64,000 nucleotides of DNA from an uncultured virus (IMG/VR IMGVR_UViG_3300005965_000003) (IMGVR_UViG_3300005965_000003), one strand, 5' to 3'. Counted from the first letter of the stretch, positions 34,364-63,221 are shown. Program-made: numbers and translations. Notes: generated by a model not told the origin, from the sequence alone.

Positions 34364-34478
34364 GACTCCGAACAGCACCGGAGTCTAAACATAGTGCTGG
34401 CAGCCATGCCCTAACGGGCATGACCGTCGCGGGCTGTACGATGCCCGCCATTGCCCCACGTACGGGGAAAAAAGATAA
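34364..34478 (+). ncRNA. structured element family 1 (H-type pseudoknot + hairpins); copies at 36178-36290 and, pseudoknot only, 38151-38184
   Basis: Compensatory changes between copies; conserved CTAAACATA linker. Confidence 0.7.
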
Positions 34479-34533
34479 TATCCAAAACCGCCCCCGCCTA
34501 AACGGGCGGGGGCAAAACAGAAAGGAGTATACC

Positions 34534-42600: not shown

Positions 42601-45600
42601 AACGTTTGAAGGTGTCGTGCGGGGTCACATCAAATGTCGGGATCGGATTGTCCGGTTCGGCAAGCCGGGACCAAAGACACGAGTCAGAAAGCACGCTCAG
42701 TCAAAGATCCAACCCGAGTATGGGAGACCGGATCGAGAACATACTATCACTGAGGATGACGTACTGAATCTCAAGATAGCTTTAGAGTCATCCAAATCAT
42801 TCGAAGAATTCCTCAACAACATATAAGGAGGTACTGATGAACGTGAACGTCACAAAAGATCAGCTCGCTCAGGCAATCGCTACCATGAAGCAGGCATACC
42901 AGTCCGAGAGCTTCAAGCAGCTCATGGATCTGGTCAAGAACAACCCTGAACTGAGTGCGTTCGTTGACGCGGACAGCATTAAGACGGTCACAGAGGTTGT
43001 TCATACTGCCCCTACGGTCGAGGTGGTCACCCCTGAGCGTAAGCCTCGGGTGGAGCTGAACAATGCCCCCAGCGGGCAGCACAGGCGGCTCAAGAAGCAG
43101 GTCAACAAGCTCCCTGTGAAGGAGCGGGAGCTGCTTCCTGAAGAGCGTGACCAGATTATCCAGTACATGAACAAGACACAGGATCTGATGCCCCACGACT
43201 CCGGTGAGGGTGATGGGATCTGTCAGCAGATGTGTGACAAGTTCAATGCTGAGAGTCCTCGCCTCAATCGGGTGTGGCCTTATCAGGTGAGCGGGTACTA
43301 CTCTCACCTGTGTCGGATGGCCATGAAGCCCAAAGATAACCGGGACGATTGGTTTGTGAGAGCCGTCGCCAAAGGATCGCTGACCGGCAATGTCCGTCCC
43401 TACTTCGGGGTCAATCTCCAGCGTCGGGTAGCCTCGAACTGGAGTAAGGCCCGCCGTGAGGAGTGGGAGCGCAAACAGGATCACGCTCAGATGCTGTCGG
43501 AAAGAATGGAAAAGGGAGTCCTTTAAGGGCTCCCTTCACTTTAACAAAGGAGTTTGTATGCCTCAGACAGTGAAGGAACTGCCGTGGTTCGATGAGTATG
43601 GTTGGGTACAACGTGACATCCCCCAGCCCGCAGTCGAAGCCTGCTATCACTCAGGTCAGTGTCAGGGTGACGTTGAGCACTGGCGTAAGGTGCTCAACTT
43701 TCAGGTGCCTCGACAGAAAGCCATCGACTATCTCAAGGAATACGGTGCCTGGGAAGTCGAAGAGATGAATGCATGGTCGGACGAAGAGCTTGCCGAGAAG
43801 GTGCTGTGGTTAGCCTGCGGAGACATCTCCGAACAGGGTGAATGGTTAGGACTCATACACTAAGGAGGACTCGTGGTACTGGATAAAGCCGTGGAAGTTG
43901 CCGAGGCTATCGGTAAGAAGGTTCGGGTCAGGCAGAAGGTCGTGAGCACGGGAGTGTTCACTGCCATCAATGCCGCCGAAGAGATTGTCGAGGAGGGCGG
44001 ATTCAAACCGGGCAGGCTCTGCGGTGATGCCCCTGTCGCAATCGCTCCGGGTGACTTCAACTATGTCGCCAAGTGGGCGAACATCAGCAGGGATGAATGG
44101 CCCAAGCTCAAGGGAGTCATTGTTTCGGAGGACTTCCGCAACGGTGATGCCTATATCTGTTACTTCGACTGAAGGAGATCTCATGGGTGATGGCACTGAC
44201 TATCAAATAGAAGAAGCATACGACTACACCGAGGATGAACTGTGGGGTTCTGGTTATGTCGTAAGCCTGATGGGAAGGTACGACCAAAACAAATCCGCTA
44301 AGATCGGTGACGTAATCAGCTGCCCGGTATGCGACAAACGATTTGTTAAGCGTACCCGCGATCATACCTTCTGCTCCAATGGTCGGAGAAAGAAGGGTGG
44401 TAACTGCAAAGACCGATACTGGAACACTGTCGATGATGAAAGGAGAGAACGTGCGAAGGCTTATAAAAAAGTATAAGGGCCACGAGATTGTTGAAGAAGA
44501 GGGCTTAATCATTGTCCACAAAGACGACAGTGATTATATAGTCGCTTTAGATGACTCTAAATCGAAAGGCCCCAAGTTTATTAACCTGAGCAATAACACT
44601 GTCGAGGCCGCTAAGGAATACATCGACTGGAAGGAGAAAGCATGTCAAAAAGATACTACACCCGTAAGCAACTCCTGAATAAGGAATGCACACATAGTGA
44701 GTACTATGCTCCCTTCATCTCCGAACGTATGGTGTGTATCGTCCTGAACCGTATTGGAAAGGAAAGGATATTAGCCAGCACAGACCCTAACTTTAATGAT
44801 ATTCCTCTAAAGGTCTGGGATAACCTGCCTTATCTGAATGGGGTGGGTGAGGTTTATAAAGAGAAGACAGGAGACTGGATGACACAGAGCTCCTGGGTGT
44901 GTATGTATAAAGAAGCCGCTCACAATATCAAACAAAAGGAGGAAGCATGCCTGAGATCTCCAAGGACATGATCGAGCACATCCGCGCCGTCATAGAGTAT
45001 GTCGAACCCAACGAACAGGAACACTACGAGTCCATGGTTGAGGAAGACCCTGACTACAAGCAAGAGAACCATGTCTACTACCACATACAAAGAGTCTCCC
45101 AATGGCTCGAACAGCAGGAGGAGTCATGAAGCATTCAATCCGATACATTCAGGTCCGGGTCGAGGTGGTCCACGATGAAGGCGTGGACCCCGAAGATGTC
45201 CTGAGTGAATGTGACTACAAGTTCGAGTCCACAAGCCCCGGTCAACAGATCCGGGACACAGAGATCCAAGCCTATTCAGAATCACCCTGGGAGTAGCCAT
45301 GAATAACTCACAGAAGTATGAGAACTCAATGATGTATTGGCACAACAACCCTCCCCCACCTTTTAACCCCGAGGCTGACCCTAAAGCAGGGGAACGCTAC
45401 GAGATGGTCACAAAGAGCATGGTAGCTGACAACTACTATGCTAACCATACCCGTGAGGAATGCAAACAGGAATGGCGGAGACGCTATGAACTTCTAAAGG
45501 AGGAACAGGCATGAAACGTTTCGTACAAGCCCTTAAAAACCCCTCTCAGTTCGGATCGGGCACCCGGACTACCCCCGCGTTTGACAGCTTCTACCGCAAG

Positions 45601-46329
45601 ACTGTCAATGATTTCAAGAAGCACTTCTCGGATGTTGCTGATAACATTCAGCTCTCCAAAGGACACTTCTACTTCAAGGGATTCCTGACTCGTAAGCGTG
45701 ACGGTCAGGTGATCTACTTCTCGATCAGCGATGTCCGGTACTTCCCGCAGACTGATATGCTCATCCGAACTGCCAAGAGCTATCGGGATTATACGGGTGG
45801 GCCTAACCATCGCGTCTCCATCGATAGCAACTTCGAGCAGAACTTCAAGAAGGGGATCGACTCTCTTCAAGAAGCCGCCTTCCAGGTTATTTAACAATGG
45901 GTGGGATATCCCACCCCCTACTCCTCGAAAGGAGAACTTATGAGGATCAAAGCTACCATCGAGATCGAGTATGAATCCAACAACATCAACCCCAAGGAGT
46001 TGAGACAAAAGATCTATGCAGCAGCTATGAGCTGTCGTCACAGGATGACAACTGTGATGGGCTTTGGCTTTCGGCAGGAAGAAGCCGAACAGATTACCGA
46101 GCCTGTAGTGTCGAGTCAAAAAATCTCTGTGGTCGATCCGGATGAGGACATCCATATCAGATGGACTGCCAATGACGTGATCGACAGAGCCGCCTATAGA
46201 GGCATCACCCTCTCCCGTGAACAGGCCAAAGAAATCCTCAGCACAATGAAAAGGAGGCACGATTGCGAAGTAGGCATCAACTGGGATGTCATTGATGTCC
46301 ATACGGACGACTTGCTCGATAACCAATAA
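39664..46329 (+). other. array of small-to-medium hypothetical genes (39664, 40135, 40571, 41625, 42218, 42837, 43558, 43873, 44183, 44642, 44947, 45299, 45511, 45940)
   Basis: Co-oriented, mostly with AGGAG RBS, many acidic or CxxC-bearing; typical of phage early regions. Confidence 0.7.
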
Positions 46330-46382
46330 CCTTCAACCAAACGTACCTATAAACCAAACCTTTTACTTACGAGGAGGCTTAA

Positions 46383-47144
46383 ATGCCAGCCAAAGCAAAA
46401 ATCATCGACGCCAACGTTCTGACCCCCGTCGCCTTCAAGGAAGCCGCTCAGCTCGCCAAGAAGATCGCCACCACCCACAAGAAGATCGCCGATATGACCG
46501 ATGAGATCACGGGCCATAAGAACAGGCTCTGTGAGATCAGCAAGGACGTGTTCTTCCGGGATCTTGGTGCCGAAATCGACTCCGAGGGTGAGCTCGTGCT
46601 GACCAACCATTCCGACCATGTCCCTCAGATCTTCGGCAACCACGAGTACGATGCCGAGAAAGCCCGCGTCTCCATCAACTTCAAGGTGTCCGCCAAGGAG
46701 ATTAAGGAGGTCGAGGGTAAGAATGCTGACAAGCGCCTGGCGGAGATCTTCGGTGAGGATTACGAGAAGCTGTTCGTGAAGGATAAGGAGTATGAGATCA
46801 CTTCCTCCCCCGATCAGATTCGCCGTAACCTTGATCGTCGCCCGGAACTCTTCGACATCACCCTCAAACCCAACCTGCCCATCGAGAAGCTCAGGGAAAT
46901 GCGTGCCGCCTTCCCGGGATGCTTCGAGCTGACGGTCAAGGACGGTGAGCAGTACGCCAAGGTCCATCCCGATCAGGTCGAGGAGAAGGTGAAGGTCAAG
47001 CTCGGTGCGAAGTTCCTGGAGAAAGCTGCCAAGCTGACCGATGATGTCCTCAAGGAAGCCAAGGTCTTCATCGTCGGCTACCTCTCCAAGAACATGTCCT
47101 CGGCAGTCGTGGTCGGTCCCAAGGCTAAGAACGGCAAAGCATAA
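46383..47144 (+). CDS. hypothetical protein, strongly codon-biased
   Basis: GAGGAGG RBS; followed by hairpin ~47149-47170. Confidence 0.8.
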   Translation: MPAKAKIIDANVLTPVAFKEAAQLAKKIATTHKKIADMTDEITGHKNRLCEISKDVFFRDLGAEIDSEGELVLTNHSDHVPQIFGNHEYDAEKARVSINFKVSAKEIKEVEGKNADKRLAEIFGEDYEKLFVKDKEYEITSSPDQIRRNLDRRPELFDITLKPNLPIEKLREMRAAFPGCFELTVKDGEQYAKVHPDQVEEKVKVKLGAKFLEKAAKLTDDVLKEAKVFIVGYLSKNMSSAVVVGPKAKNGKA

Positions 47145-47665
47145 CCTGAAGGGGGTAACCAACCCCCCTCTACCTTGATACTCGCTAAATTCCCAATCAA
47201 TCTTCTCACTCAACAACAAAGGAGCCTATCATGGCTAAGAAAAAACTCAAGCTCAACTTTCGCACAATCGCTTTCCTCTCCGTCTCAACTCTCGGTGTCG
47301 TCGGCTGGTCCGGTCCTGACTATCAACCCCTTATCTCCGCCCGAGACTCGGGGTCACGAGTCATCACGCGAACGAAGGATAAGATCGAGGCTCTAAGGGA
47401 CTCAGCTTCCGAATGGGTAGAGGCTCTAAGGGGTCACGAGTCATCACGCCGATAGAGCCTCAGGCTCTAACACGAGTCATCACGTAGATCAGGGAGGCTC
47501 TAAGGAGTCTCCCCTTTTTATTCCAAGGCTCTACCACATATCAGGGAGGCTCTATGTGGAAACAGGCTCTAATGCAGGGATATAGTATAGCTCTTGGCTT
47601 AGCGGTACTTGCCCTGCTTGTTGACCAGGCTCTAAGAATTGTACATAAATCCGTAAAAAGGCTCT

Positions 47666-48256
47666 ATGAAAGAAACTCGAAAGGAGAACTACCCAATGAA
47701 TAACACGGTAAAAATTATCCTCACCCAAGACGGTCCCATGTCCTTGAGTGAAGATGCCCACGGATCTCTTCGCCCCGAAGTCCCCACCCGGCTTTCAGCC
47801 GAGGGGTGGGACGAACTGAATACGTTGCTTGAGAACTGTTCAGTGGAATCAGCCTGGCGCTCCGCAGATGGGTGGGAGCTTATGAGTAATCGAGGCTCTA
47901 CCATCAGTATCTATGACCTACTCAAGCCTCTGGAAGGCTCTAACGAGGATCTGGTCATGGCTTTGTGTGATGCCTTCGATACACACCTGAGTGAATACGG
48001 GTTCCAGGCTGTCGAAGCCGCCTACGATGCCAATGTCCTCTGCTGGAGAACTACCTCTCAGGTAAAACTTGAAGCACAAGTGCAGGAAATTGCGGTGAGC
48101 AAAGACTGCTACGGGTGCGGGGCTGAGCTTGAGGATTGGTATGATGTGAGTGAGGCTCTAACAGACCCTACAACGGGGTACGTAGTGCCTGAGGCTCTAT
48201 GCGAAGAATGTCTCAATACACAGGAGGAGAAAATAAGAAAGAGAACTGAAACCTAA
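47666..48256 (+). CDS. hypothetical protein with C-terminal CxxC pairs
   Basis: CYGC..CEEC. Confidence 0.65.
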   Translation: MKETRKENYPMNNTVKIILTQDGPMSLSEDAHGSLRPEVPTRLSAEGWDELNTLLENCSVESAWRSADGWELMSNRGSTISIYDLLKPLEGSNEDLVMALCDAFDTHLSEYGFQAVEAAYDANVLCWRTTSQVKLEAQVQEIAVSKDCYGCGAELEDWYDVSEALTDPTTGYVVPEALCEECLNTQEEKIRKRTET

Positions 48257-48281
48257 GGCTCTAAAACCCAGGTAAGCATCT

Positions 48282-48746
48282 ATGAGTCGCCGAAAACCCA
48301 AACGACAACCCAATATCCTTATATCCAACCCTCCGGTATCCTCTCAGGCAGCTTACCACCTTTTGGTGTGTAAGCTGGCCTCTGAGGCCGGTGAGAGACC
48401 ATTCCGCTGGTGGGAATGGGTGGCATTCAGAGCAAACTACCTAACAAATCTTGAGAGGCTCTACGGTATGCTGTGGTGTGAATACTGTGGAAAGCATCCT
48501 CTACAGATAAATGGTGAACTGTACTCTAACCAGTGTCTGGCGACGCTGGATCACATCCACGCTGTAGCACATGGAGGCTCTATCTATGATCCGAAAAATT
48601 TAGCGGTAGCCTGTCATGCCTGCAATCAAGAAAAGAATGATAGTAGGGGCTTTCACCCGAGGCTCTACCCCTACGAAAAAGAAACTATAGCATTACTCGA
48701 AAGGAGTATGTATGTCGAATCTGTCACCAAAGCTTACCCGAGGTAA
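48282..48746 (+). CDS. HNH endonuclease
   Basis: CEYCG..ATLDHIHAVAHGG..NLAVACHACNQEK. Confidence 0.9.
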   Translation: MSRRKPKRQPNILISNPPVSSQAAYHLLVCKLASEAGERPFRWWEWVAFRANYLTNLERLYGMLWCEYCGKHPLQINGELYSNQCLATLDHIHAVAHGGSIYDPKNLAVACHACNQEKNDSRGFHPRLYPYEKETIALLERSMYVESVTKAYPR

Positions 48747-49386
48747 CGAGAAGATCAAGGAGGCTCTTGTCTGGTCGATCCCCTCTGGTAAGACCTGCCC
48801 TGGAGCTACAAAGCTCTGTAGCGTGATCTGTTATGCCAGACAGTCGGAGATACAGTATCACAATGTTGTCCCACCGAGTCGCTGGCATAATCTGAGGCTC
48901 ACCAAACGGGCTGACTTTGCCGAGATCATGATCAAGGCTCTAAAGAGACGGCGCTACCGGGCGTTGCGGATACATGAGAGTGGTGACTTCTACTCTCAGG
49001 TGTACCTCAACAAGTGGGTAGGGATCATCAAGGCTCTACCGGAATGGATCTTTTGGGCTTACACGAAGTCTCACTCGCTGGACTTCTCCGAGGCTCTAAA
49101 GCTCCCCAACCTCAACCTGAGGTATTCGGTGGATGCCACCACAAAGAAGTATCCCAAACAGGATATGCCGCTGGCTCACCTGTCCATGCATCAGCCTGAC
49201 GGTGCCTTCGAGTGTCCCGGCACCGGAGCTGCTGGCGGGATCAAGTGTGCCAGAGATTGCAAGGTTTGTATGGAAACCTCTAAATCAATCTGGTTTCACC
49301 CCCATGGGACGCACCGAAAGAAGATTGAACGCTTCGAGAGTATCACTCCAGAGCACGAGTCATCACGTATTCTGGCTGGGGCTTAA
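48712..49386 (+). CDS. phage Gp88-like Fe-S/radical-SAM-related protein
   Basis: TCPGAT..C...CYA, RIHESGDFYS, WAYTKS, C-terminal Cys cluster and HG. Confidence 0.8.
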   Translation: MSNLSPKLTRGNEKIKEALVWSIPSGKTCPGATKLCSVICYARQSEIQYHNVVPPSRWHNLRLTKRADFAEIMIKALKRRRYRALRIHESGDFYSQVYLNKWVGIIKALPEWIFWAYTKSHSLDFSEALKLPNLNLRYSVDATTKKYPKQDMPLAHLSMHQPDGAFECPGTGAAGGIKCARDCKVCMETSKSIWFHPHGTHRKKIERFESITPEHESSRILAGA

Positions 49387-49411
49387 CGGCTCCAGCCTCT
49401 AAGGAGGCTCT

Positions 49412-52400
49412 ATGAATTACTGTCATGTCCCGGAGAACATCCGGGACATCATCAACAATTCTACTGAGGGCACACAGCAGGAATGCTATGATGCTATCGA
49501 GGAAGCAAAGGACTGGGAAGAAGCAAAGATGAATGTGAAAAATGCTCTCTACAATCTTGAGAGTGAATCTAAACGTATAAGGGAGGCTCTATCATGAGTG
49601 GATTTGTGAAGTATTCAAAGCCCATCGACTTTCAGACCATGAAGAAAGAAATGGAAGCCCGCCTCAAGGATTACCGGGAGAGTGTGAAATTCTTTCGGCT
49701 GGTTTATGGAATCCTCAAGGGATGGGAAGGAAAGCAGATCAGTAAGCGGATGACTACCTATGTCGATAAGCAGTTGCCCGAGAACACATGGTCGGCATTG
49801 GAGTTCAGTTTTTCCTCAATCTCAATGAGGTTCTACCGGAAGCAGACCGAACCCACATACAGAAACGAGCGGTTCATGACTCTTTCAATAGGGTCTGTGG
49901 ATAACAAGACATTCTCAATGGATGCCTTGAATATCGAGGTGGATTCTTACCAGTCACTTGAGGAGTCCGCCGACAAGCTGGAAGTGGGACTCAAGGCTCT
50001 ACCGCTCTTCGTGAAGGAATACAACGAGATTCTTTCCAGAGCACAGGCTTTGGTGGAAGAAGCGACTAAGGTCAAAATGGAGTATGACTTCGACATCATA
50101 ACGAGAGGGACAAATGAACCGGATTCAGCTCAAGACTCTAAGAGAACAGATTCAGGAAAATATCCGAAGAAGGAGAAGACATCGATGAATAACAAACAAC
50201 GACACGAAACCTTTGACGAGGCTCTAAAGATTCTTAAACAGGACTGGATGGATGCCCGACCGGGAAGCGCTCACAAGCAGAAGCTTTCCCATGTCTATGC
50301 AAGCCTCAAGAAGATTGCAGAGGAACGTACTCGGGTGGCTGTCTTCATGGACGGTGGACTGATCCAAGAAATATACTCCGACTCCCCGGTAGAGGTCATG
50401 AAGATCGACCTCGACGTCGAGGGGGCTGAAGAAGAAGAAGAGCTGACCACCTATCCCGACCGGGAAGGTGTGGCTAATAAAGCCTACATCTCGCTGGAAA
50501 AATCCGGGTACGGGGTGGATGTAGATGAAGAGTACATCGATACCCTGTGGAACAACCTCAACAAGGAGGACTGATGAGTAACCGAGCAATCCTGACAGCC
50601 ATGAAGTTCGAGGCTCTAAGCGGGGATGTGTCCTATGGATACACCCTGTCCGATGAGTATGCTCTGGACTACGATAACAATTCTGAAGCCATGATCGAAG
50701 ATGACCTCGACCTGCTCCGCTATGCCCTCAAGAACGCGGGCAACGGCGGGGATGAAATCCTTGGCAGTGTCAGGGATAACGAGAAAGGTATACAGATCAA
50801 TGACCAGTGGTATGACTGGGAAGAAATCGAATCCATTATGGAAGGAGATGAACAATGAATAACGAAGCCGCTGTGATCATCGTCATGGATAATGACAACC
50901 TCATGGATACCATCCTCGTGCCCAATGGGCATGAGGATGATCGGGCGGAGAAGGTCTTCGCCAAAACCTGCCAGCTCCACCTCCATGCTACCGCTAAATT
51001 CCCCCGAAGATGCAAACTTTGATGGGGGCTACATGAAGAAGGGGAATATGTATGTCATGCTCACATGGCCCCGACTGCCTGAGTATGAGTATGAGAATCG
51101 GTGTCGGGTCTGTGCCCATGATGTGAGGTTCTGGTACAAGGGTGAAGAACCAATCACCGATGAGATCAAAGAGATCATGAATGAGGAAGCAGAGAGCCGG
51201 GCAAAAGATATGATCATTGAGGACTATACCTCCGGTGAACTCAATCTGGAAAATGATGAATACTCTTTCCGAGGATGGTGGGAAATTGAAAAACAGTAAC
51301 CTGGCTTTCGAGATAACCGTGGAGGACGTGATAAACGTCCTCCGCAAAGAGAACAGAATCGCTCAACTCAGTAGAGTGGAAGAACTCTATAACGAGCTGG
51401 ACTTTGGAGCCATTGAGAAAGAGGCTCTATACGGAGATGACATCGATGAACAGACAGAGTATGCGTATGATGCCATTTGGGAACAAATCAAAGGGAGGCT
51501 CTAATGAATCCGAATGCTTGTGAAGAGTCGATCAAGGCTCTAAGCGATCTGCTCCATCAGTATCACGCACAGGAAAAGTGTGGTATGCAGTCCGTACTGC
51601 GGGATGTGTTGACAGACCTGCGCCATGCAGCCCATGAAAGGCATCTGGACATCGATAAGGCAATCGAAGGCTCCCGGATGGTATGGGAATCAGAAATGGG
51701 ACGATGGTTCGTGCCCGGCATGGAAGTCATGGTGGACTCCCCCCCGAATGAAAAAGCCTGCTGGAACAATGAGTTCCGGGGGACCATCGTTAAGGTCAGC
51801 CAGGAAAGAAAGATGTATGATGCAGGCAGGAATGAATATTCCTGCTACTGCACCGTCAAAGATCAGGAAGACAACCACTACGATATCGATTACAAGTATG
51901 TTCATCCTATGGAAAAGGAGGACTGAATGGGAGACTCTAAGATGTCTTTTGAAGAAATGGAACAGAAGTATGTCCTAAACAATGGGCTGACCTGCCTCAA
52001 CCCTGAGTGTGACGGCACAGACTTCGAGGGAGGCTCTATCAAAATCGATGGACCCATCGCTGTACAATCCATTACCTGCAACAAATGTGGATCTTCATGG
52101 AGCGACATCTACAAGTTGCAAGGTGTAGATGACGTGGAGCTGGAAAATGAATGAGATAAAACGTATGGATCTCATGAGATTCAGAGTGCTCTACATCCCT
52201 GTGGGTGTAGAGCATCCCCACTTTCCGGCAGTCAAACACGAGAAGCCTATTGTAGAGTTCTATGATATGCTTTACCAGCATACACCCGATGGGCAGTTCA
52301 CGGGGGGACGCTACTATATAGAGACTCTACTGGAAGACTCCGAGCGTCTAAGAGTAACAGGACTTTCCCTCGAAGGATCAATTCCTTCATGGGTAATCTT

Positions 52401-54641
52401 TCCTACAGAAATGAACAATACCTTGAACTGGATTGAAGCATTGCAAAAGGAATCCGAATGATCAATAACCGCAAGAAGCTGGAGAACTACCGCAAGCTAC
52501 TCCAAGAAAGATATGAGGCTCTAACAAAAGAACTCATGGGTCGAGAAGCCGATTATGAGAAATTCGAAGACCGACACCACGGAACAGGACGGGGAACATA
52601 CACAAAAGAATATGTGGATGCGTCCAATATCTCAGACTCCCTCAAGGTACGTATGGCTGTCGATGACTTCCAGACTATCCTCAAAGAAATCAAGAAACTC
52701 GCTGCCAAATAAGGAGGCTCTATGAGCAAGTACATCTGCGGAATGTGTGGTGGTACCGAAGCCGATTTATTTAGGAGGCTCTAAAATGATTGAATCCACA
52801 ATCGAATACAAGATCCCCTTCAAGGATGGTATAGAGGGTATAGAGTACGTGGAAGATTGAGTATGCACAAATCCAACATTGCCAAAGTGAAATGTATGGA
52901 ATGCAATGAGTTCTTTCCCCCCGAGGATTTCGAGGGGGAAGACCTCACTAAGCAGGCCATTCATAAGAAATGTGGACGACTGACTGTCTGTCCAATCTTC
53001 ATTATACATCCCATAAATGAAAGGATAATATGAACACCAAGATCGCCTACATGTATCGTGACGGTGACAACTACAAACAATACGAGGAAGTCGTCATCCC
53101 CGGAGAGATCACCGACGAAGACAAGGCTCTAATCCTCAGCAAGCGGGATGAGGGTCAATACTTCATCCCCTCTCAGGTAGGACTCAATGACTTGCAGGAA
53201 AGAATGTGCTCACCCATCGGGGACTCAGACCATGTGTGGCATGAGCTGGAAGAAGAAGATATCTCCCACACCCATGATGACCCCACCCCTAACCACGGCT
53301 TTGATAATATCTCGGAGCTGGTGGAAAGGTTCAAGGCTCTAAAAGAGTGGGATATCATGGGCGCTACCAAAGATCACAATTTTAATCCCGAACAGTAATA
53401 TTCTTTCACAATCAAACAAATGGAGGACAATATGTCCCGTACGGTAGAAATCTATCTGTCTGACCTCACCGAAGAGAAACAGCAGGAAGTCCTTGAGGCT
53501 TCCGGACTCTCATCCGCCGACAACTGGGATGTATCACCTCTGGCTATCCTCGAATACGAGGACGAACCCTATGAAGAATAAACGCTTCACCATCCCCCGG
53601 TCCTCTAAATATGCCCGACACCTTTGGGGTCGGGCAGGGACCCTCCTTAAAGAAACACCCACACAGGTATACGATTATGCAAATAATCGTATAAAAGACT
53701 CTAAAGAATACTGGCTCAAGTTTGATGAGCCTGTACCAGCCAAGGATGAGTTCGGGCATGACTCCCCTCTGGCTGGTTGGGAAGGCATATGGATATCCAA
53801 GGAACTCATAACCGAAGCGGAGGACAACTGATATGAATAAGAATTGTAACGACTGCGGGGTATTGCTCCCCACCGATGCCAAAGGATCACTGTGCGTCTA
53901 TTGTGAGAAATCAAAAGAACGCAGAGAAGAACACAGAGCCTCTTGGATCTCCTACAATGAACCCGAGGCTATGAAAGAACTCAAGCCCGGTATGTATCTC
54001 GGTCTGTACCATGGATTCAAGAACGAGCAAGAACGACAAGAGACAGAGGATTGGGGAGCCAATGGCCCCTGTATAGGTCCCCTCGTCTTTGCCCATACCA
54101 CCTATGCGGCTCACATCAAACTGCGCTTCAAGGATGATGAGACGGCTCAGAGATTCGGCTTTAATGAAGCCGATGACTTTAATGAGATAAAGATTAAAGG
54201 AGATGTCGTAGAATACGATGGTATGGAATACGGAGACTGGACCTGCTTCACCCACCCCACCCCGGAGATGAAATGACTAAACGTAAGTACGGGTATATCA
54301 TTACCCAAAAAGGTGCCCCCCAACTCACAAAGAATATCGGTGACTCCTATACTTTTCTGGTGCCGGTAAGCATTCAAACAGATAACAATAAACAAAGAGA
54401 AACTCTTGAGGAAGTCACTCACATTTTCTATAACTCAGATAAAGGATGGGTACCGTACCTGAGTACATGCGAAAGTGACTACAGTACCCTGCTCTTTGAT
54501 TCCGATGAAGATGCCGAACTGCTCTCCGAAATGGCTCAAGCCCTCGGGGACAAAGCCATCAGCCAGATGTTCTATACGGCTGAATGCATCTGGAAAGCAG
54601 CACCCCAGGAGTTCTCTATCACAGATGAAGATATCCTCTAA
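49412..54641 (+). other. array of small acidic hypothetical genes (49412, 49594, 50574, 51504, 51927, 52458, 53030, 53833, 54273 and others)
   Basis: Co-oriented overlapping ORFs; several starts use GGAGGCTCTATG. Confidence 0.65.
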
Positions 54642-54921
54642 GACACAAGTCATCACGTATTATCAAGGCTCTAACACAAACAAGGAGACTCTATGAACAA
54701 GGCTCTAACCTATAAGACTGAAGACTTCCGAGTCATCACCGATACAGACATGACCCACTGCCGCTCCACCCGCTGAGGAAGTGATCCAATTGATCATCAC
54801 CAAACTCAAACGTGGAGAGTATCAGTAAGTATACGAGGCTCTATCCTTAGAGCCTCTATCCCTCCTCCCACCACCACGGGGAGGGTCTAACCAAGGATCT
54901 AACACCCAACAAGGAGGCTCT

Positions 54922-55719
54922 ATGAGCACCCGTGGTAATGTCACTATCAAAACAAAACATGGGACTTTCATGTATGAAATCCCCTCCTCAGCAGATGAGA
55001 TGGACAACATTAAGCTGCTTGAGAACTGGTCTGGAGATATGCCCGAACTCCAGGAACTCCATATGAATCCCGGTCACGTAGGAAATCCCTCCATCTTCCT
55101 CGATGTCGATGCCATCAAAGGTACCCTGACCATCAGGAAAGCTCAATCCTTTTGGGTCAATGCCCCTGAGGATTGGAGAGAACGTGGGTATATCTGCTAC
55201 CAGAGCGATAAAGACTATAAGCAGTGGGGATACCACTCATGGAGAAGAGGTAATGTAATCATGAGACATACCTATCCCGAGGCTCTAACAACTCCCGGAG
55301 CCGCCCCCGACTGGCTCTATACCAAAGAGGACATGAAGGAACTGGCAAGTATCTTCCAAGGCTCTAACGGGTACAGCCAAGCCGCCTACCTCATGAAGAA
55401 AGTCTCAGCCGTAAAAGAACTGGTACCGGTCTTGTTTGGACCCTATACCAAAGAGGAAATGAAGGAACTGGCAAGTATCTCCCAAGGCTATAACGGGTAC
55501 AGCCAAGGCTCTAACGGGTACAGCCAAGCCGCCTACCTCATGAAGAAAGAATACAAGTACGACCCTCAGAAGATTTATCTGTGGCTCTCAGCCGTAAAAG
55601 AACTGGTACCGGTCTTGTTTGGACCCTATGAAGAACTCCCTACCATGCTCAACTCATGGGAACCTATCAAATCAATCGCCATCTGGCGGATGAAAATGAA
55701 TGAAAGGAAAGCAGTATAA
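54922..55719 (+). CDS. hypothetical protein with recent internal duplication
   Basis: MKELASI.QG.NGYSQ and SAVKELVPVLFGPY each occur twice; tail EELPTML..AIWRMK. Confidence 0.75.
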   Translation: MSTRGNVTIKTKHGTFMYEIPSSADEMDNIKLLENWSGDMPELQELHMNPGHVGNPSIFLDVDAIKGTLTIRKAQSFWVNAPEDWRERGYICYQSDKDYKQWGYHSWRRGNVIMRHTYPEALTTPGAAPDWLYTKEDMKELASIFQGSNGYSQAAYLMKKVSAVKELVPVLFGPYTKEEMKELASISQGYNGYSQGSNGYSQAAYLMKKEYKYDPQKIYLWLSAVKELVPVLFGPYEELPTMLNSWEPIKSIAIWRMKMNERKAV

Positions 55720-56180
55720 ATGCTGCACAAAAACTACTACGGCATTTTCGGCCTTGCACCAGTAAAATTCGGCGCAAGGCTCTCTAAACCGATCCTAAAC
55801 CAGTCCTAAACGGAGGTACACGAATGAAAAACGTCCAAATCCCGATGCAGTTTGATGAAGAGGCTCTAAAAAACCTCAGAGAGCAGAAAAATGAGCTGAT
55901 TAGGGCAAGAAATAATGATGCTCTCTCAGAAAATGTAGAGGGTATCATACACATGATCGACCACATCCAGGATTATTTGGCGGACAACAAGATATTTCCT
56001 GAAAATGTGGTATTCGACAAGGGATTGCGAAGACTGGCAGTATGAAGTAGCAAACAATGATACCCGCCTCGGGTATCATGAGTGGGTCGAAAAGAAAAAA
56101 GAAGAAGATTCGTAATCAAATAAGTATATTGTTATTGGTTGTTCCCTTTTACCTCCATTTAAGGTGCAACCGACTCCGAC

Positions 56181-56218
56181 GGCCCCAAGGAGCCACCACC
56201 TCCGAGGGGCCTTTTTTT
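56181..56218 (+). terminator. intrinsic terminator
   Basis: GGCCCC..GGAG/CTCC..GGGGCC followed by T7. Confidence 0.7.
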
Positions 56219-56261
56219 ATGTCTGAGGAATCGGACCCAATCAACAAAGGAGCAAGTAATC

Positions 56262-56705
56262 ATGACTACCAAAACTATTAAAGAATTCATCATCAAGTTT
56301 AATGAAGACCTCGAATGGAATATCGTAGGCGAAAAACCTACCCCTAAAGAATGGGATCTCTTAGAGGAATATATGAAGCCCACCGTAAAAGCCGTAGATA
56401 ACGGTATCGGCTATTATGAGTATGGTTCCATATGTGCCACACATACCCAAATAGAACCCGAAGTCCAGGAAGAAGGAGAAACCCTCAAAATTAAAGCGCT
56501 GATATCAAATAGCGAACTCCTCAATATGACCCCCGAAGAAATCATTTATGAGTTCTTGGAATACCAAGACTACATCCCAAGCACATACCAATGGAGTACC
56601 CCCAGAAATGAAGTCTCCTGTGACTTCGAACTCGAATGCATCAAAGCTCACTACTCTCCTGAAGATAAAGCAGTAATAGCCGAAATAGGATACGTAGAAG
56701 CCTGA
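56262..56705 (+). CDS. acidic hypothetical protein
   Basis: AAGGAG RBS, 147 aa. Confidence 0.7.
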   Translation: MTTKTIKEFIIKFNEDLEWNIVGEKPTPKEWDLLEEYMKPTVKAVDNGIGYYEYGSICATHTQIEPEVQEEGETLKIKALISNSELLNMTPEEIIYEFLEYQDYIPSTYQWSTPRNEVSCDFELECIKAHYSPEDKAVIAEIGYVEA

Positions 56706-56713
56706 CACCCCCA

Positions 56714-56739
56714 AAATTCTTCCACAGGTGGAAGAATTT
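56714..56739. promoter_or_regulatory. 26-bp palindromic site AAATTCTTCCAC-NN-GTGGAAGAATTT; also 56798, 57035, partial 57303, 59108, 59222
   Basis: Perfect 12-bp arms in three copies. Confidence 0.85.
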
Positions 56740-57343
56740 CGGGGGTACCCCCTCCCTTTTACCCCCCAAGTCCACAAGTCATCACGTAAAACATACAAAA
56801 TTCTTCCACAGGTGGAAGAATTTCGCACCCCCCAAGGCTCTAACAGAAAGGATTTACTATGTCCAAGGCTCTACCCCAAGGGTATGAGGAAGAAGCAGAT
56901 GAATACGCATCCATAGGTTATATCCTGTGGTACGATGAAAAAAAACCACAATACTGGATAACTGATATGGGTGGTGAAGAAATAACCACCTTTAGAAACC
57001 TCGAAGAAGCCAAAAAATGGAGACTCAACCATTAAAATTCTTCCACCTGTGGAAGAATTTCCAACATCCGGGAGGATTAAACATGCCCTTCTACAAAAAC
57101 CAAATCCTCGTAAATGGAAAAGAAAGAAAAGTCAGTAACAATATCACAGATGACAAAACAATCGCACTCGAAAGACACGAAAAAGCCGTAGCATGGGCTG
57201 AACAGTATTCCACTACCTTTGGATACTCCGTTACTGTGAACCTATACAAAGATAATAACCCCATCCTTTCCGTAGATTACGAATACTAAAAACACCCATA
57301 TACTTCCACCTGTGGAAGATTTCCTAACACCCAGGAGGTAAAC

Positions 57344-57883
57344 ATGACCCTCAGAAAAGGCGACAGGGTAGCTTTCAAAAACCAAGGCTCTATCTTCTCC
57401 AGAACCGTGGTCAAAGGAGGCTCTAAAAGAATCCATGTCATACGTGATGGTGGTGAGTATGAAGTAAAAGGACCACCCGAATGCTTCAAGAAGGTAGATA
57501 TACCACTACCAAAAGACCCACCCTCCCCCATGGATAAATACCAAGTCATCAGCTATAACGAGATCCCAGGACACGGAGATACCCCCACTTTCTCCGCTAC
57601 CATCACTAAAGACGGTATACCCATCCTGAAAGCCTCTAACGATGGGTGGGGTGGCTCTAACTGCTATGATCCCATCTCCTCAGGCTATAAAGAAGAAGTC
57701 TGGAAGTTCAAAGATGCCGCAAAAATATGGGCCCTCCAGTTCGGGGCATCCAATCCCCTCGAAGCTGAAGACCTATGGATAGATTGGTACGTAAATAAAC
57801 GCCCTTATGCCGTCACTGCCCAAGCATATTGGGAGGAATACAACGAAATGATCAACCCTAAAGGAGGTACCCCTATCGATTAA
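57344..57883 (+). CDS. hypothetical protein
   Basis: AGGAGG RBS; NDGWGG motif. Confidence 0.75.
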   Translation: MTLRKGDRVAFKNQGSIFSRTVVKGGSKRIHVIRDGGEYEVKGPPECFKKVDIPLPKDPPSPMDKYQVISYNEIPGHGDTPTFSATITKDGIPILKASNDGWGGSNCYDPISSGYKEEVWKFKDAAKIWALQFGASNPLEAEDLWIDWYVNKRPYAVTAQAYWEEYNEMINPKGGTPID

Positions 57884-58014
57884 TTGACTGCCTCTGTCTC
57901 TTTTATTCACTTTTCCCAAAGGTACCCTATCCCTATTTAATTGAATGCTCTTAAATAATACCCGTATACCGATGGGGTACCACCCAAAACCAAACCAATC
58001 ATGGAGGTAAAACC

Positions 58015-58287
58015 ATGGCAACAGCAACCAAATCCACCAAAAACAACATCATCCAGACCAAAAACGGACCCCGGACCTACAATTTCGGTCCCGTGAAACT
58101 CGGTACCATCACCTACAGCAACAAAAAGAAGGCCATCATCCAGCTTCTAAAGCGATCCAAGATGTCCCAACATGAAATCGCCCTCAAGATCGGAGTCACC
58201 GAAGCCCGTGTGTCTCAGGTGAAGAAGGAACAGGGCCTCAGAACGCCCGAAGGGCGTGTCGTAGGCTCTAAAAAGCGCATCCGGTAA
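58015..58287 (+). CDS. small basic helix-turn-helix DNA-binding protein
   Basis: MSQHEIALKIGVTEARVSQVK; GGAGG RBS. Confidence 0.8.
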   Translation: MATATKSTKNNIIQTKNGPRTYNFGPVKLGTITYSNKKKAIIQLLKRSKMSQHEIALKIGVTEARVSQVKKEQGLRTPEGRVVGSKKRIR

Positions 58288-58536
58288 CCCAACTAGGGTA
58301 CCCCCCTCCAAAATGTCTCTGTGGGCTTTTAAAAAGCTCTCAGGGGCAAGGGGTACCCCCTACCTTCTCCAAGGGTTTATATCTATGATGTACGTCCTCA
58401 CAGTCCTTCTCATCATCATTATCGTGATGATGTTAGGTATGTGGCAAGGATTAGTCACAATGAATACCAACATGGTAAAATGTCTCAGGGCTATACAGAT
58501 AGAAATAAAGGCTCTAAAAACCAATAAGGAGGATCT

Positions 58537-58971
58537 ATGATTATGATATCTCTGAACATCGTTATCATTCTGCTGGTTCTGTGGTCGATACTCTGGAACT
58601 ATAAGATGATGAATAACCTTTATAACGAAGTTATAGAGAAGTCATCCATACTCAGAGAGAAGATCGACTTCCAGGAAAGAAAGGTAGAAGGCTTCGGTAC
58701 AAAACTCCAAGGCTCTTATGCCATGGGTGAAGCTATGTGTAGGAGAGTAGATATACTATCCAAGGATATAGACTCCCAATCCAAAATGCTTACCGGTTTA
58801 TGTGTCTCTCTCATACCCCCCGATAAAATGGATGCCTTCTTCACTACACTGGATGAATACCAGAAGATGAGAAAGAAGTTCACCCAATCCCCTCCCCCGC
58901 CTACGGCGGATGAGAAAAGCTCCCATACCCAAGGCTCTACCAATTCCGATCCTGGCTCTAACGATTCCTGA
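58537..58971 (+). CDS. membrane-anchored coiled-coil protein
   Basis: N-terminal hydrophobic helix. Confidence 0.65.
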   Translation: MIMISLNIVIILLVLWSILWNYKMMNNLYNEVIEKSSILREKIDFQERKVEGFGTKLQGSYAMGEAMCRRVDILSKDIDSQSKMLTGLCVSLIPPDKMDAFFTTLDEYQKMRKKFTQSPPPPTADEKSSHTQGSTNSDPGSNDS

Positions 58972-59076
58972 TAGGATCTTAGATCAAGTATAGGTAAAAT
59001 ACTCCTACCCCCCTCCATTCTCTTCGCGCCAAAGGCGCATCGAGGGTGGGGGGAAAGGTGGGGGGTACCACACATG

Positions 59077-59104
59077 CCATCTATTAAGATTGCTTAATAG
59101 ATGG
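59077..59104. other. perfect 12-bp inverted repeat at a strand-skew switch; candidate origin element
   Basis: CCATCTATTAAG-ATTG-CTTAATAGATGG. Confidence 0.6.
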
Positions 59105-59660
59105 TCGAAATTCTTCCACAGGTGGACAAATTTGGGTATAGGAGGCTCTAAATTCTCCGGGCGCGTCAGCGCGGGGAGGGTTTTGAGGGTCTAACAGTAA
59201 ATTTTGGTGGTCTGTGGGGAGATTCTTCCACAGGTGGTCGAATGTGGCGCAAACGAATAGATCAGGATCATTTATTTGGAGTGGACTAAATTAATAGGTT
59301 ATCTTCCTATTATTTATCTATACTCCACCCCTCCCCGCCTTCGGCGGATAGGAGAGGCACTTAAAGGGGTATTCAAATGCATACCCAAGGGTTATCTTCA
59401 AGAGTATGCAGGTAATGCATAGAGATTCATTTAACATCTTAAACATCTGGATCATATCACATGACCGGATGTATATGGCTGTAGGAATGAGTGTATCGTA
59501 TTCGCTTCTATGGAGTGGGTTAGTGAAGCGTATATCGGTGAGTAGCTTTTGGGATAGATTATGGTATGCCGTAGGTGGAGCTATAGGGACGTATGTAGCT
59601 TTGTTACTCAAGGACTTTTTATAGGGGAGGTTGGGGGATATGTCGGAAAAGGGATTATGT

Positions 59661-60092
59661 ATGAGGTTGGTGACAATCTGTACAGATGGAGCGTGTTCTT
59701 GTAATCCCGGTATAGGTGGATGGGCGGTGTCATTGACAGCACGTCCTAAGGATGTGGATAGGATACGTACACGTTTTATATCGGGGTATGAGAATGACAC
59801 TACCAACAATCGTATGGAGCTTATGGCGGCTATACGGGGGTTGGAGGTATTGAAGGAGCCCTGTCGGGTAGTATTGCATAGTGATTCACAGTATTTGGTT
59901 AAGACCATGACTAAGGGGTGGTCGAGGAAAAAGAATCATGATTTATGGGCGAGTCTTGATGAGTTGAGTCGTATCCATGATATAGATTGGCAATGGGTGA
60001 GGGGTCATTCTACTCATGCGGGTAATAACAAGGTGGATGAGTTAGCGGTTCGGGCTATACGGGAGCGTGGTGGGGTGGATTACTATTCCTGA
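59661..60092 (+). CDS. rnhA: ribonuclease HI
   Basis: TDGACSCNPGIGGW, TTNNRMELMAAI, SDSQYL, WVRGH, N..VDELA. Confidence 0.97.
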   Translation: MRLVTICTDGACSCNPGIGGWAVSLTARPKDVDRIRTRFISGYENDTTNNRMELMAAIRGLEVLKEPCRVVLHSDSQYLVKTMTKGWSRKKNHDLWASLDELSRIHDIDWQWVRGHSTHAGNNKVDELAVRAIRERGGVDYYS

Positions 60093-60609
60093 TGCGGGAG
60101 GTTGATGATGCCTGTATGGATGATAGCTCTGCTTGTTGTGTACAGTATGGTAGCTACGGTGTTAGTCTACTTGATGGGTCTGAATATGGGTAGGGCTGTA
60201 CGGAGGTTGGAGTGGGTACGGGGTTATGTGCGTTGTCCTAAGCACATTTGCAAGAACCTGAACCGGAAGTGTCATATTTGTGTACGTCGTTCTTGTATAG
60301 ATATGTTTGAAGAGATAGAGGGAGATGGGATCACAAATAAGAAGTGAGAAGATTTAATTATTAATTTCTAAAAAGTATCTTGTATTGTGAGGAGGTATTA
60401 AATGATAGTAGACACTGATGCGTTGCTTCGAGCGATAGAGTATTATGAGGACTCCGAGGTTCCTGATTGGGAAACCTGCCCCATCTCCACACTCAATGCC
60501 GCAGAGCGGCGGGCACTTAATAGACGAGAGGTCATAGAGAGATTCTGTGCGTTGGCAGAAGAGTTCGGTGATTCGATAGTGGAATCCGGCGATGGGGGAG
60601 GTAAAAGCG

Positions 60610-61071
60610 ATGCAGACAATCATGACATCTCGTAAGCAGGTGCCTGCGGTATTCAAGAAGGTATCGTGGGTATCGGGTATGCGGAATCTGGATATGGGTG
60701 CGGGTCGGTATCCTGAGTTGTTTACTGAGGCTTTGGCATCAGTAGGGGTGGAGAATCATTCATACGACCCGAACAATCCTTTTATCTCACAGATGCCTGA
60801 GGGGCAGTTTGATACGGTAACGATCAGCAATGTATTGAATGTCATAGATACCTGGCGGGGGAGGATCAGTCTGGTATCGGGGGCATTGTCTAAGGCTCCT
60901 GTGGTTTATATCACGGTGTATGAGGGTGATCGTTCGAGAGAGGGCAGGGAGACTCGTGATGGTTACCAGATGAATCAGCCTCTGAGGTTCTACCTGGATG
61001 AGATCATCGAATACTTCCTTTTCATTAGCATACAGATGAAGAATGGAGTTTTGACCCTCGGGAGGATTTGA
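60610..61071 (+). CDS. small class I SAM-dependent methyltransferase
   Basis: NLDMGAGR, YDP, FDTVTISNVLNVI, TVYEGD. Confidence 0.8.
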   Translation: MQTIMTSRKQVPAVFKKVSWVSGMRNLDMGAGRYPELFTEALASVGVENHSYDPNNPFISQMPEGQFDTVTISNVLNVIDTWRGRISLVSGALSKAPVVYITVYEGDRSREGRETRDGYQMNQPLRFYLDEIIEYFLFISIQMKNGVLTLGRI

Positions 61072-61791
61072 TTGGAATTTTTTCGGATAGTATTTATGAT
61101 GGCCTTTCCTTTGGCTGTCATATATTTGGTGGTAATGATAGCCGCGAGGGTTGACTGGATCAATCCTTTAAGTTGGGGGGTGAGTGAGGTACTTCTGGCG
61201 TATGTATTAACCATAGGGTTTATACTTTTCGTTACCTCCTGTCTTGTACTGGTAGAGTACCGGGAGTATGGTGTATACTTAGCTTTCTTTTTTGGTTCCA
61301 CCTTGGCTACTCAGAGATACAGTGTAGTATTACCGTTGCTTTTCCACATCATTTCTTTGTTCTTAATGGGTGGGATGGTTTATCAATTCTTTCTTTAGGG
61401 GGTGCCTTTATGGGATTCATTACTTGATGCTTTAGCGTGGGGAATAATAGGGTTTATCGTTGGTGTGGTAGTGGAGAGGGTGCTTAGCGGGATTCATAAG
61501 AAAAAGGATAGCTGATGCGTTGCTTACGGTGATGGTACAAGGATACACCTTGTTATGCTCACACGCAATTTGAGCGTATTCATAGTGATTGCCGGATCGG
61601 CAAACACCTGATGAAGGTACAGGAGGAAAAGGTATGAGTGATACATTCAAGCAGACTTTAAAGAGGATAGCTGAGAGTCGTGGGATATCTTATGGTGATG
61701 TCCTGAGAAAGTGGGAATCCTACAAGTATGATTTCATGATGGGGAAGTTCATCACTCCCCCTAACCTGGAGACTTTTCAGGAGGATTATGT

Positions 61792-62118
61792 ATGAATCAG
61801 GCAGAAAAGGACAAGCGTTTTAAGATGTTTGTGGCTGCTGTTACTCGTACCTATCGTCCTTCGGGATCGTATGGGAAGGGTAACAAGTGGATACCATCTC
61901 AAGGGGAGCTACAGCCTTGTTGTGAGCATGTGAGGGCACCTTCACATGCTTATCCTCTATCCATGAAGCGTCATTGTGGGACACGCAAGCATGTGGTGGA
62001 GGTCTTGCGGAACTGTTATCAGATCACGAAGTATGAGGATTTGCCTTTGCTTCTTTCCCAGGATAATGCTTTGGGGAAAGCGGCGAGGGATGTATTAACG
62101 GGTTTTTCATTCAATTAA
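61792..62118 (+). CDS. hypothetical protein
   Basis: CC..VRAPS..YP.S...HC.T.KH; tail YEDLPLLL. Confidence 0.7.
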   Translation: MNQAEKDKRFKMFVAAVTRTYRPSGSYGKGNKWIPSQGELQPCCEHVRAPSHAYPLSMKRHCGTRKHVVEVLRNCYQITKYEDLPLLLSQDNALGKAARDVLTGFSFN

Positions 62119-63134: not shown

Positions 63135-63221
63135 TTAGACTCACCCAAATAGTATGTTAATAAATGGACTCTCTTTATAGGGGCTTTGACCGGCCCCCTA
63201 TTTTATTAAAAGGAGTGATGG

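Follow-up and report, generated by a model that had tools for sequence, protein, structure and literature searches.

A polar GGCTCTA motif crowding an 11.8-kb gene block of an uncultured hypersaline-water virus: a possible stoperator-like lattice

In this study, we analyzed a 64,000-nt sequence of the uncultured virus IMGVR_UViG_3300005965_000003 (hereafter called the window, i.e., the whole stretch of DNA at its full length), within which one block of small genes is crowded with a single polar heptamer, GGCTCTA. The window is composed of four compositional blocks, extending over 1–33.5 kb (30–42% G+C), 33.5–47.4 kb (50–59% G+C), 47.4–59.15 kb (44–50% G+C), and 59.2–64 kb (46% G+C, with a GC skew of about +0.3), and in the last three of them all likely genes, i.e., longer open reading frames (ORFs) with good ribosome-binding sites, are located on the + strand. 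The third block, which is the motif domain (47389–59150), starts after the hairpin closing the last gene of the second block and carries about 28 small, tightly packed, + strand ORFs, most of which are orphans; gene positions used below were taken from our own 27 ORF calls in this domain. Only a few of its products could be named. These are an HNH endonuclease (48282–48746, + strand), whose gene contains three motif copies, and a homologue of mycobacteriophage L5 gp88 (48712–49386, + strand; Pfam GP88, 27% identity, E-value 3e-18), in which three motif copies are read as KAL, KAL, and EAL; gp88 is a gene of the L5 right arm. Close to the distal end of the block, a 90-amino acid (aa), basic protein (58015–58287, + strand; isoelectric point (pI) 11.2) contains a tri-helical helix-turn-helix (HTH) motif of the sigma-70 region 4/FliA type at residues 37–73. 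No Rfam family was found in the domain.

Within the window, 57 exact copies of GGCTCTA were counted on both strands, compared with 8.03 ± 3.04 (17 at most) in 100 dinucleotide shuffles. A first-pass annotation of this DNA had claimed about 53 copies on the + strand and two on the − strand of 47389–59150, nine of the former being packed into the first 280 bp, and a single copy elsewhere. The recount returned 53 and 2 (the latter at 47453 and 54848), which gives one site per 220 bp, and the nine-copy cluster was found at 47389–47666. As for the remaining 52 kb, the copy at 17496 (+) was confirmed, but a second one, at 24223 (−), had been overlooked. The annotation also described the track as directional and sharply bounded, which agrees with the 53/2 strand split, with the two copies in the other 52 kb, and with the + strand bias of the variants (see below). 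It had named a similar density genome-wide as an observation that would speak against a separate domain; within the 64-kb window, only these two copies lie outside of it. No comparably enriched oligomer was found in the other compositional blocks of the window.

The alignment of the 53 + strand copies extended the heptamer to a motif of about 11 nt, S-R-A-GGCTCTA-H (approximately 17 bits). Upstream of the heptamer, an A occupies position −1 in 50 copies, a purine position −2 in 47 copies, and a G or C position −3 in 40 copies, whereas downstream, position +1 is never G and only a weak AAC/ACA preference follows. From −45 to +49 no further conserved position was detected in the same alignment, and the lack of a second informative block indicates a single compact motif rather than a bipartite signal. 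The 8-mer AGGCTCTA occurs in the domain 50 times on the + strand and twice on the − strand, and its one-mismatch variants 20 and 6 times, respectively. For the three remaining blocks, the variant counts are 16/18, 3/3, and 2/1; the variants are thus both enriched and strand-biased in the domain and neither in the other blocks. The + strand set of the domain (47389–59150) comprises, besides the 53 exact heptamers, 18 one-mismatch variants of AGGCTCTA. Such a combination of an invariant 7–8-bp core, graded flanks, and a strand-biased tail of variants is what would be expected of a family of protein-binding sites. It is also worth mentioning that the 5′ part of the motif is Shine-Dalgarno-like, as it is formed by GGAGG in 13 and by GAGG or AAGG in 47 of the 53 copies.

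The reality of this architecture was checked against public sequencing runs from hypersaline lake and microbial-mat metagenomes that contain this stretch, four of which were compared with positions 45001–64000. Two contigs of the Joint Genome Institute (JGI), L122 and L123, match 47315–50475 and 50511–57615 with 99.8–99.97% identity and represent the same strain. The left border of the domain is crossed by a 16.2-kb contig of an approximately 93% identical relative (45001–54276), coming from a run of another year and study, and the right border is crossed by a 6.0-kb contig (57017–63022); contig depths show no twofold step across the domain. An assembly artifact, which the first-pass annotation had listed as a possible undoing of the domain, does not agree with these independent contigs and the relative running through its borders.

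More than two-thirds of the + strand copies (36 of 53) lie inside ORFs, where all three reading frames are used, i.e., xxG-GCT-CTA (E/K-A-L) by 20 copies, GGC-TCT-A (G-S) by 12, and the third frame by 4, and where they are evenly spread (relative positions from 0.05 to 0.98). The other 17 copies fall into the non-coding part, and since this constitutes only about 11% of the sequence, non-coding DNA is about fourfold richer in the motif. The occurrence between genes and, in three frames, within them had been noticed in the first-pass annotation, in which the nucleic acid rather than the protein was proposed to be under selection and an amino-acid-preserving shuffle was suggested beforehand as a way to refute this. 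Shuffling of synonymous codons within genes left 3.69 ± 1.73 copies (10 at most in 1000 shuffles) in place of the 36 observed, and shuffling of codon order left 0.70 ± 0.86. Moreover, the rare leucine codon CTA is used 36 times in the domain and 7 times in the neighboring block, and the tripeptides EAL and KAL together occur 23 times in the 3483 residues of the domain as against twice in the 2972 residues of the neighboring block. As the excess survives the synonymous shuffle, the motif must have been imposed at the level of DNA or RNA and has altered the proteins. In homologues of the protein encoded from 47696, two G-S sites are kept in 5/5 and 4/5 cases and two E-A-L sites are lost in 2/5, which is uninformative about DNA.

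The copies might also be a functionless by-product of repeated duplication and recombination of a motif-bearing gene-start cassette. The indels and polymorphisms described here are among 40 of 1209 differences. The 93% relative differs by cassette-like indels, e.g., by a 176-bp indel (54659 to 54836) lying between the motif copies at 54667 and 54837, i.e., the kind of deletion that such an origin would leave behind, and it has no counterpart of one of the duplication units within gene 54922–55719, where tandem duplications of 126 and 21 bp (55317–55629), each with motif copies, were found. A 265-bp cassette (57075–57341, including the ORF 57083–57289) is missing from a variant present in all four runs. 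Some of the motif copies indeed belong to repeated modules (families D4, D5, D7, and D8). Nevertheless, beyond positions −3 to +8 the flanks of the 53 copies are unrelated, so that the motif is exact and its surroundings are not; the copies occupy three frames of unrelated ORFs; and the motif is present at about 6 of 26 indel ends (3.7 expected), which is no more than chance. We regard the by-product explanation as highly improbable.

The spacing of neighboring sites was found to follow the helical repeat of DNA. For the 24 successive exact-site spacings below 100 bp, the Rayleigh statistic at 10.5 bp was R = 0.45 (p = 0.008, phase 0.04 rad), and p = 0.007 was obtained with a jitter null in which each site was displaced by up to 5 bp in either direction, with no 3-nt periodicity (p = 0.42). 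Other frequent 5-mers, used as a control of small size (n = 4), reached an R of 0.25 at most. The addition of the 18 one-mismatch variants raised the number of spacings to 37 and R to 0.53; 29 of these 37 deviate by no more than 2 bp from a whole multiple of 10.5 bp, compared with the expected 48% (binomial p = 1.3e-4). The resulting ladder contains spacings of 11–12, 20–21 (7 spacings), 30–33 (9 spacings), 41–43, 60–64, 74, 84–86, and 96 bp. Furthermore, each of the only two − strand copies is paired with a + strand copy, with half-site centers 10 and 11 bp apart. The first pair (47453–47469) is a perfect 17-bp palindrome, TAGAGCC-TCA-GGCTCTA, of operator-like appearance (centers 10 bp apart), and the second, GGCTCTA-TCCT-TAGAGCC (54837–54854; centers 11 bp apart), is intergenic, upstream of gene 54922–55719. 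The inverted pairs have the geometry that a two-monomer operator would show, and together with the 10.5-bp spacing they look like the signature of proteins arranged on one face of B-form DNA, the binding of which is thus predicted. Among the options listed in the first-pass annotation, the phasing favors a protein-coating (or centromere-like) track.

By the same token, the phasing favors a protein on double-stranded DNA and argues against an RNA signal, and so against the previously suggested binding site of an RNA-binding protein on early mRNA. In this alternative, GGCTCTA would be an mRNA-level tag read by a phage endoribonuclease or RNA-binding protein, which inactivates or marks the transcripts of the block, as does RegB of phage T4. 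RegB is described to cleave early mRNAs in their Shine-Dalgarno regions, at an 11-nt site that begins with GGA (PMC1702504), and both elements are of about 11 nt and overlap the Shine-Dalgarno sequences (ribosome-binding sites) of one class of messengers (PMC1702504). The polarity of the motif is that of the sense strand, no + strand copies exist in the flanking + strand blocks, nine copies with their Shine-Dalgarno-like 5′ part abut start codons, and a twister ribozyme in the neighboring block indicates that the phage already processes RNA. Against this stands, apart from the 10.5-bp period, which an RNA tag leaves unexplained, the folding prediction, in which the motif is no more single-stranded than the controls: the median accessibility of the motif is 0.0084, compared with 0.0107 for composition-matched 8-mers (p = 0.21), and three copies reside in perfect hairpin stems, while RegB needs single-stranded RNA. 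RegB sites are also described in that source as intergenic and degenerate after GGA, whereas here the core is invariant and two-thirds of its copies are written in codons. The window also yielded no candidate RNase. Altogether, the tag appears unlikely.

The nine + strand copies at the head of the block (47389–47666, 278 bp), with successive spacings of 33, 41, 33, 31, 21, 17, 63, and 32 bp, cover the 3′ end of an ORF of 74 codons, then a terminator-like hairpin, and finally the block's untranslated leader. The hairpin (47492–47522, + strand) is the best in the region (9 pairs followed by a T run) and has one motif copy in its 5′ arm; another copy falls into the spacer of a sigma-70-like site (47557–47586) listed by a promoter scan, although such sites are not enriched (21 vs. 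27.8 expected). Interleaved with the motif copies of the head, a second element, CACRAGTCATCACGTA, with the sequence CACGAGTCATCACG(C/T), is repeated three times in tandem (47355–47490, + strand). Its three further + strand copies are located at 49354–49369 (54 nt upstream of the start codon at 49412), 54644–54659 (with a motif copy 9 nt downstream), and 56773–56788 (82 nt upstream of the start codon at 56859). All six are private to the domain, and the distance from those outside the head to the start codon downstream is 46–82 nt. A promoter of the block, or the site of a second regulator, would be expected at such a position, and the element may be considered promoter-like. Between each of the four gene-preceding CACRAGTCATCACGTA elements and its start codon, at least one motif copy is present.

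The location of CACRAGTCATCACGTA bears on another explanation, in which GGCTCTA itself is a minimal promoter or initiator for a phage RNA polymerase or a sigma-like factor, with transcription starting at or after the final A and giving leaderless mRNAs where ATG follows. Short single-block promoters are characteristic of phage-encoded polymerases and of T4 gp55, five of the copies end in the A of an ATG, 10 of 53 are located not more than 30 nt upstream of a start codon (3.7 expected), and the motif is about four times denser in intergenic than in genic DNA. On the other hand, 36 copies are spread evenly through ORFs, a promoter density of one per 220 bp is without precedent, neither an RNA polymerase nor a full sigma factor turned up in the window, the expected promoter positions are held by CACRAGTCATCACGTA, and the genes with the motif at their ATG retain the full upstream Shine-Dalgarno sequence. 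A downstream TAnnnT is absent (4 of 53 vs. 2.9 expected), and as there is no second conserved block either, a MotA-box/sigma-70 promoter was ruled out. The minimal promoter seems very improbable.

The head array recalls iterons and type Ib/II plasmid centromeres (e.g., parC of R1 and the omega heptads of pSM19035), i.e., direct repeats bound cooperatively on one face of DNA. This would agree with a DNA-bound lattice of non-transcriptional role, either a centromere-like or condensation track, nucleated at an iteron/parC-like head array to which the remaining copies are secondary, or a ratchet assisting the entry of this part of a very long genome into the cell. Compact phasing at whole helical turns is typical of iterons and type Ib/II centromeres, and the domain is sharply bounded; the block is moreover the second one behind a non-coding region that carries three promoter-like repeats in tandem and possibly marks a genome end. 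Known iteron and centromere arrays are, however, contiguous, span less than 300 bp rather than 11.8 kb, and lie beside rep or par genes, whereas here 44 further copies are dispersed over 11.5 kb of coding sequence. The scans of window ORFs (93 with Pfam, 73 with PHROGs, and 18 with NCBIfam) revealed no replication initiator, no partition gene, and nothing resembling ParA/ParM/ParB/ParR. Partition requires no strict co-orientation with transcription, and for entry neither a physical end nor an entry order is demonstrated. We consider a non-transcriptional lattice unlikely as well.

At its distal end, the domain closes with a non-coding border of about 660 bp (58972–59630), which contains the last motif copy (59144), several hairpins, and a GC-skew switch from −0.13 (57–59 kb) to +0.32 (59–61 kb), in line with the earlier placement of the domain end at a skew switch near 59.1 kb. 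Two copies of a 26–29-bp palindrome with the core TTCCAC-MK-GTGGAA are also situated there. Its six copies (56714, 56798, 57035, 57298, 59108, and 59220; the whole set spans 56714–59248) are private to the domain, being confined to its distal end and the border region; several of them precede ribosome-binding sites, and the 57075–57341 deletion falls between two such palindrome-plus-ribosome-binding-site modules. They look like operators for a dimeric regulator.

This border is also the place from which a DNA-processing enzyme might read the motif. Chi and KOPS (FtsK-orienting polar sequences) are polar oligomers occurring genome-wide, once per 1–12 kb, and oriented with replication or by a DNA end; they are read by RecBCD/AddAB or FtsK. 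In the present case, a Chi-like copy would tame a host exonuclease that comes in from an end near 59.15 kb, and a KOPS-like copy would guide a translocase. GGCTCTA resembles these, and uptake sequences, in being over-represented within genes in several frames, and shares strand polarity, their hallmark, with Chi and KOPS. Its + orientation would face an enzyme entering from the hairpin-rich right border with its skew switch, and for a strand-specific nick site, an HNH endonuclease gene is present in the block. Yet the motif density is 20–50 times that of Chi or KOPS, the copies are confined to 11.8 of the 64 kb seen and oriented with transcription, none exists in either orientation beyond the right border, and the densest array is situated at the opposite end from the presumed entry. 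Neither helical phasing nor inverted pairs of the operator type would be expected of Chi, KOPS, or nick sites. Contigs run through 59.15 kb, where no physical end is shown, and with no twofold depth step the guide, packaging, and injection signals proposed in the first-pass annotation have no support. We judge a DNA-processing signal of any of these kinds to be very unlikely.

The first-pass annotation knew of no phage system described with this motif and overlooked the closest analogue, the stoperator of mycobacteriophages, which is likewise asymmetric, present in many copies, and oriented with transcription. The repressor of cluster A mycobacteriophages is monomeric and binds more than 20 asymmetric 13-bp sites, oriented with transcription and located in promoters and short intergenic spaces; it halts elongation, and the effect is lost when the site is reversed (PMC9283540). 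The system silences whole stretches of non-structural genes (PMC9283540), and the motif domain shares with it the L5 gp88 homologue; the non-structural character of the domain is judged from its gene content alone. As in the case of the L5 gp71 and TipsytheTRex repressors, the site analyzed here is short, asymmetric, and present in tens of copies, some at promoters and others downstream (53 exact copies and 18 variants of an approximately 11-bp site), and its orientation follows transcription (53 + vs. 2 −, with all ORFs of the domain on the + strand).

We tentatively favor an operator-plus-roadblock lattice for a sequence-specific DNA-binding protein, which would silence or time an early gene block in a stoperator-like manner. 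GGCTCTA would then be the core of an approximately 11-bp asymmetric site for a protein binding double-stranded DNA, and more than 50 such sites, co-oriented with transcription, would cover a single block of about 28 small genes as a lattice. The bound protein is presumed to sit on operator-like sites, both in the head of the block and shortly downstream of the promoter-like elements, whereas the internal sites might act as an orientation-dependent roadblock to RNA polymerase. In this way, the whole block could be switched off together, either as early-gene shut-off in the lytic cycle or as silencing in a carrier state. Because the genes abut or overlap, the sites would have had to be written in codons and ribosome-binding sites, which would explain the excess of EAL, KAL, and GS as well as the GGAGGCTCTATG gene starts. 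The co-orientation, the inverted pairs, the crowding of the head by the terminator and promoter-like elements, and the presence of a copy between each such element and its gene all speak for this proposal.

The protein encoded by 58015–58287, already singled out for testing in the first-pass annotation, is a candidate binder; should it bind the motif, the location of its gene at the distal end would provide the block with a delayed negative-feedback timer. In a tblastn search of the 64-kb window with the L5 repressor gp71, the HTH of this protein was the best match (E-value 0.1), and the pairwise comparison of both HTH motifs (16 of 35 residues identical, E-value 2e-4) gives a weak lead. Its predicted fold is a generic tri-helical HTH (mean predicted local distance difference test (pLDDT) score of 69.5; best Foldseek E-value 0.16).

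Several observations weigh against the roadblock lattice. With 53 copies in 11.8 kb, the sites are about 10 times denser than stoperators (approximately 25–35 in about 50 kb), and 36 of them are intragenic, whereas stoperators are described as intergenic or promoter-located (PMC9283540). The early nature of the block is deduced from gene content and position alone, and the population is polymorphic for at least one motif copy (50612). A repeated gene-start module (family D5) partly accounts for six of the 21-bp spacings, hence the spacings are not fully independent. The candidate binder 58015–58287 has a generic fold match and no counterpart of the second (stoperator) domain found in cluster A repressors, and the six palindromes flanking its gene might just as well be its targets. 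Finally, nine motif copies abut start codons, typically as GGAGGCTCTA followed by 0–3 bases and ATG, and five of them share their final A with the ATG, which would not be foreseen for a pure DNA roadblock; two of the nine belong to mini-ORFs with 20 and 24 codons. This link may simply reflect the fact that ribosome-binding sites are the sole non-coding DNA available, together with the Shine-Dalgarno-like 5′ half of the motif.

The start-codon link is better matched by the start-associated sequences, or SAS, together with their extended form (ESAS), of cluster K mycobacteriophages than by stoperators. SAS are described as 13-bp elements with a Shine-Dalgarno core, which occur about 10–20 times per genome and, in a single orientation, are restricted to its non-structural part, 3–7 bp before ATG, with 6 of 125 within ORFs; inverted repeats precede some of them, and what they do is not yet known (PMC3203893, PMC12699233). 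Similarly, the motif is found in one orientation, nine of its copies abut starts, and the 26-bp palindrome stands before several ribosome-binding sites. Unlike SAS as described there, only 9 of 53 copies adjoin a start codon and 36 are placed inside ORFs.

Differences from stoperators concern also the site length (8–11 bp here and 13 bp there), the confinement to one block with helically phased neighbors in place of a genome-wide distribution, and the repressor itself, as no two-domain gp71-type homologue is present in the 64-kb window, where tblastn of L5 gp71 found no second (stoperator) domain and only the generic HTH resemblance. The lattice would thus work like stoperators, and we do not claim that it belongs to that family. 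It is possible, though rather doubtful, that the architecture is an undescribed one, unrelated to known repressor-operator families, in which one small DNA-binding protein coats an 11.8-kb block via a phased one-way lattice, written into codons and ribosome-binding sites under a selection so strong that it remodeled the encoded proteins, and so provides a block-wide directional switch or timer. In a literature search for the 8-mer AGGCTCTA together with "phage", the matches listed were of the primer type by title, which is not a proof that the motif is undescribed.

If the domain is a directional silencer, the phage would control about 28 genes as a unit without relying on a promoter for each of them, a DNA-binding code would be able to override the choice of codons and even of amino acids, and stoperator-type regulation would extend, in a far denser form, beyond actinobacteriophages. 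The 8–11-bp DNA word and its phasing provide a testable handle on the regulator of an orphan-gene block in an uncultured hypersaline-water phage.

Related proteins with 41–91% identity exist, among them those encoded on a 29.6-kb JGI contig (68–82% identity). A blastn search of the domain and its right flank against known phages gave no match, and for the left 8 kb the matches, to Lak and further uncultured phages of very large size, were only short and weak. In IMG/VR, no relatives were found with the GP88-like protein, a 20-mer of the head array, the palindrome, the RNase H, or the HTH alignment, and a triple-motif pattern was present at no fewer than 121 loci, the richest 22 of which are tandem coding repeats and not dispersed polar domains. 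No relative was found among GTDB genomes, and a scan of one metagenome returned only two contigs of the same strain. As most ORFs of the window are also without a family, it appears to represent a segment of a novel phage, possibly a very large one. The few homologues of the second-block proteins come from phages of Proteobacteria, and this, together with the non-acidic proteins, makes a salt-out bacterial host likely; the host is probably not an actinobacterium. The idea of a halophilic archaeon, derived from the avoidance of CTAG, was rejected because the proteins are not acidic.

The blocks differ in further respects. CTAG occurs 51 times in the first 33.5 kb and 1, 1, and 0 times in the following three blocks, and G+C content, protein pI, and database affinities also change between 1–33500 and 33500–64000. 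The difference at 33.5 kb may result from mosaic origin, a mobile insert, or a chimeric join. At this point, a 700-bp non-coding head of the second block (33260–33960), over which G+C rises from about 36% to about 58%, contains G/T-rich GGTTTAGGTA-like repeats followed by three tandem units of about 100 nt, each with a TTGAAA-N16-TATATG-like site and the 12-mer TGCCTATATGTA, which may be early promoters at a genome end.

Within the first block, two large − strand ORFs (12734–21696; 2066 and 920 aa) were without a counterpart in Pfam and PHROGs as well as among known phages and solved structures, and family and structure searches gave no support for the idea that they encode an RNA polymerase. 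Another ORF (11637–12737, −) fuses a 5′-nucleotidase-like N-terminal part to a complete Fe/Mn superoxide dismutase. The same block carries an RNA-repair set, in which two polynucleotide kinase-phosphatase genes flank an RNA ligase gene (2928–3830, 5966–7012, and 7009–7899); phages use such sets against host tRNA nucleases. The fourth block (59160–64000), where the unusually strong GC skew of about +0.3 on the coding strand is accompanied by an unchanged gene direction, encodes RNase H and a methyltransferase-like protein. Two pairs of direct repeats of 54–60 nt were identified in the second block (34419–34478/36231–36290 and 35519–35572/35850–35903; 92% and 85% identical, respectively); they may represent structured RNAs or else regulatory modules located upstream of small genes. 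The twister ribozyme of this block is of type P5 (35439–35498, + strand; 52.1 bits with a gathering score of 37.6, E-value 3e-8) and is located directly after the ORF 34420–35433.

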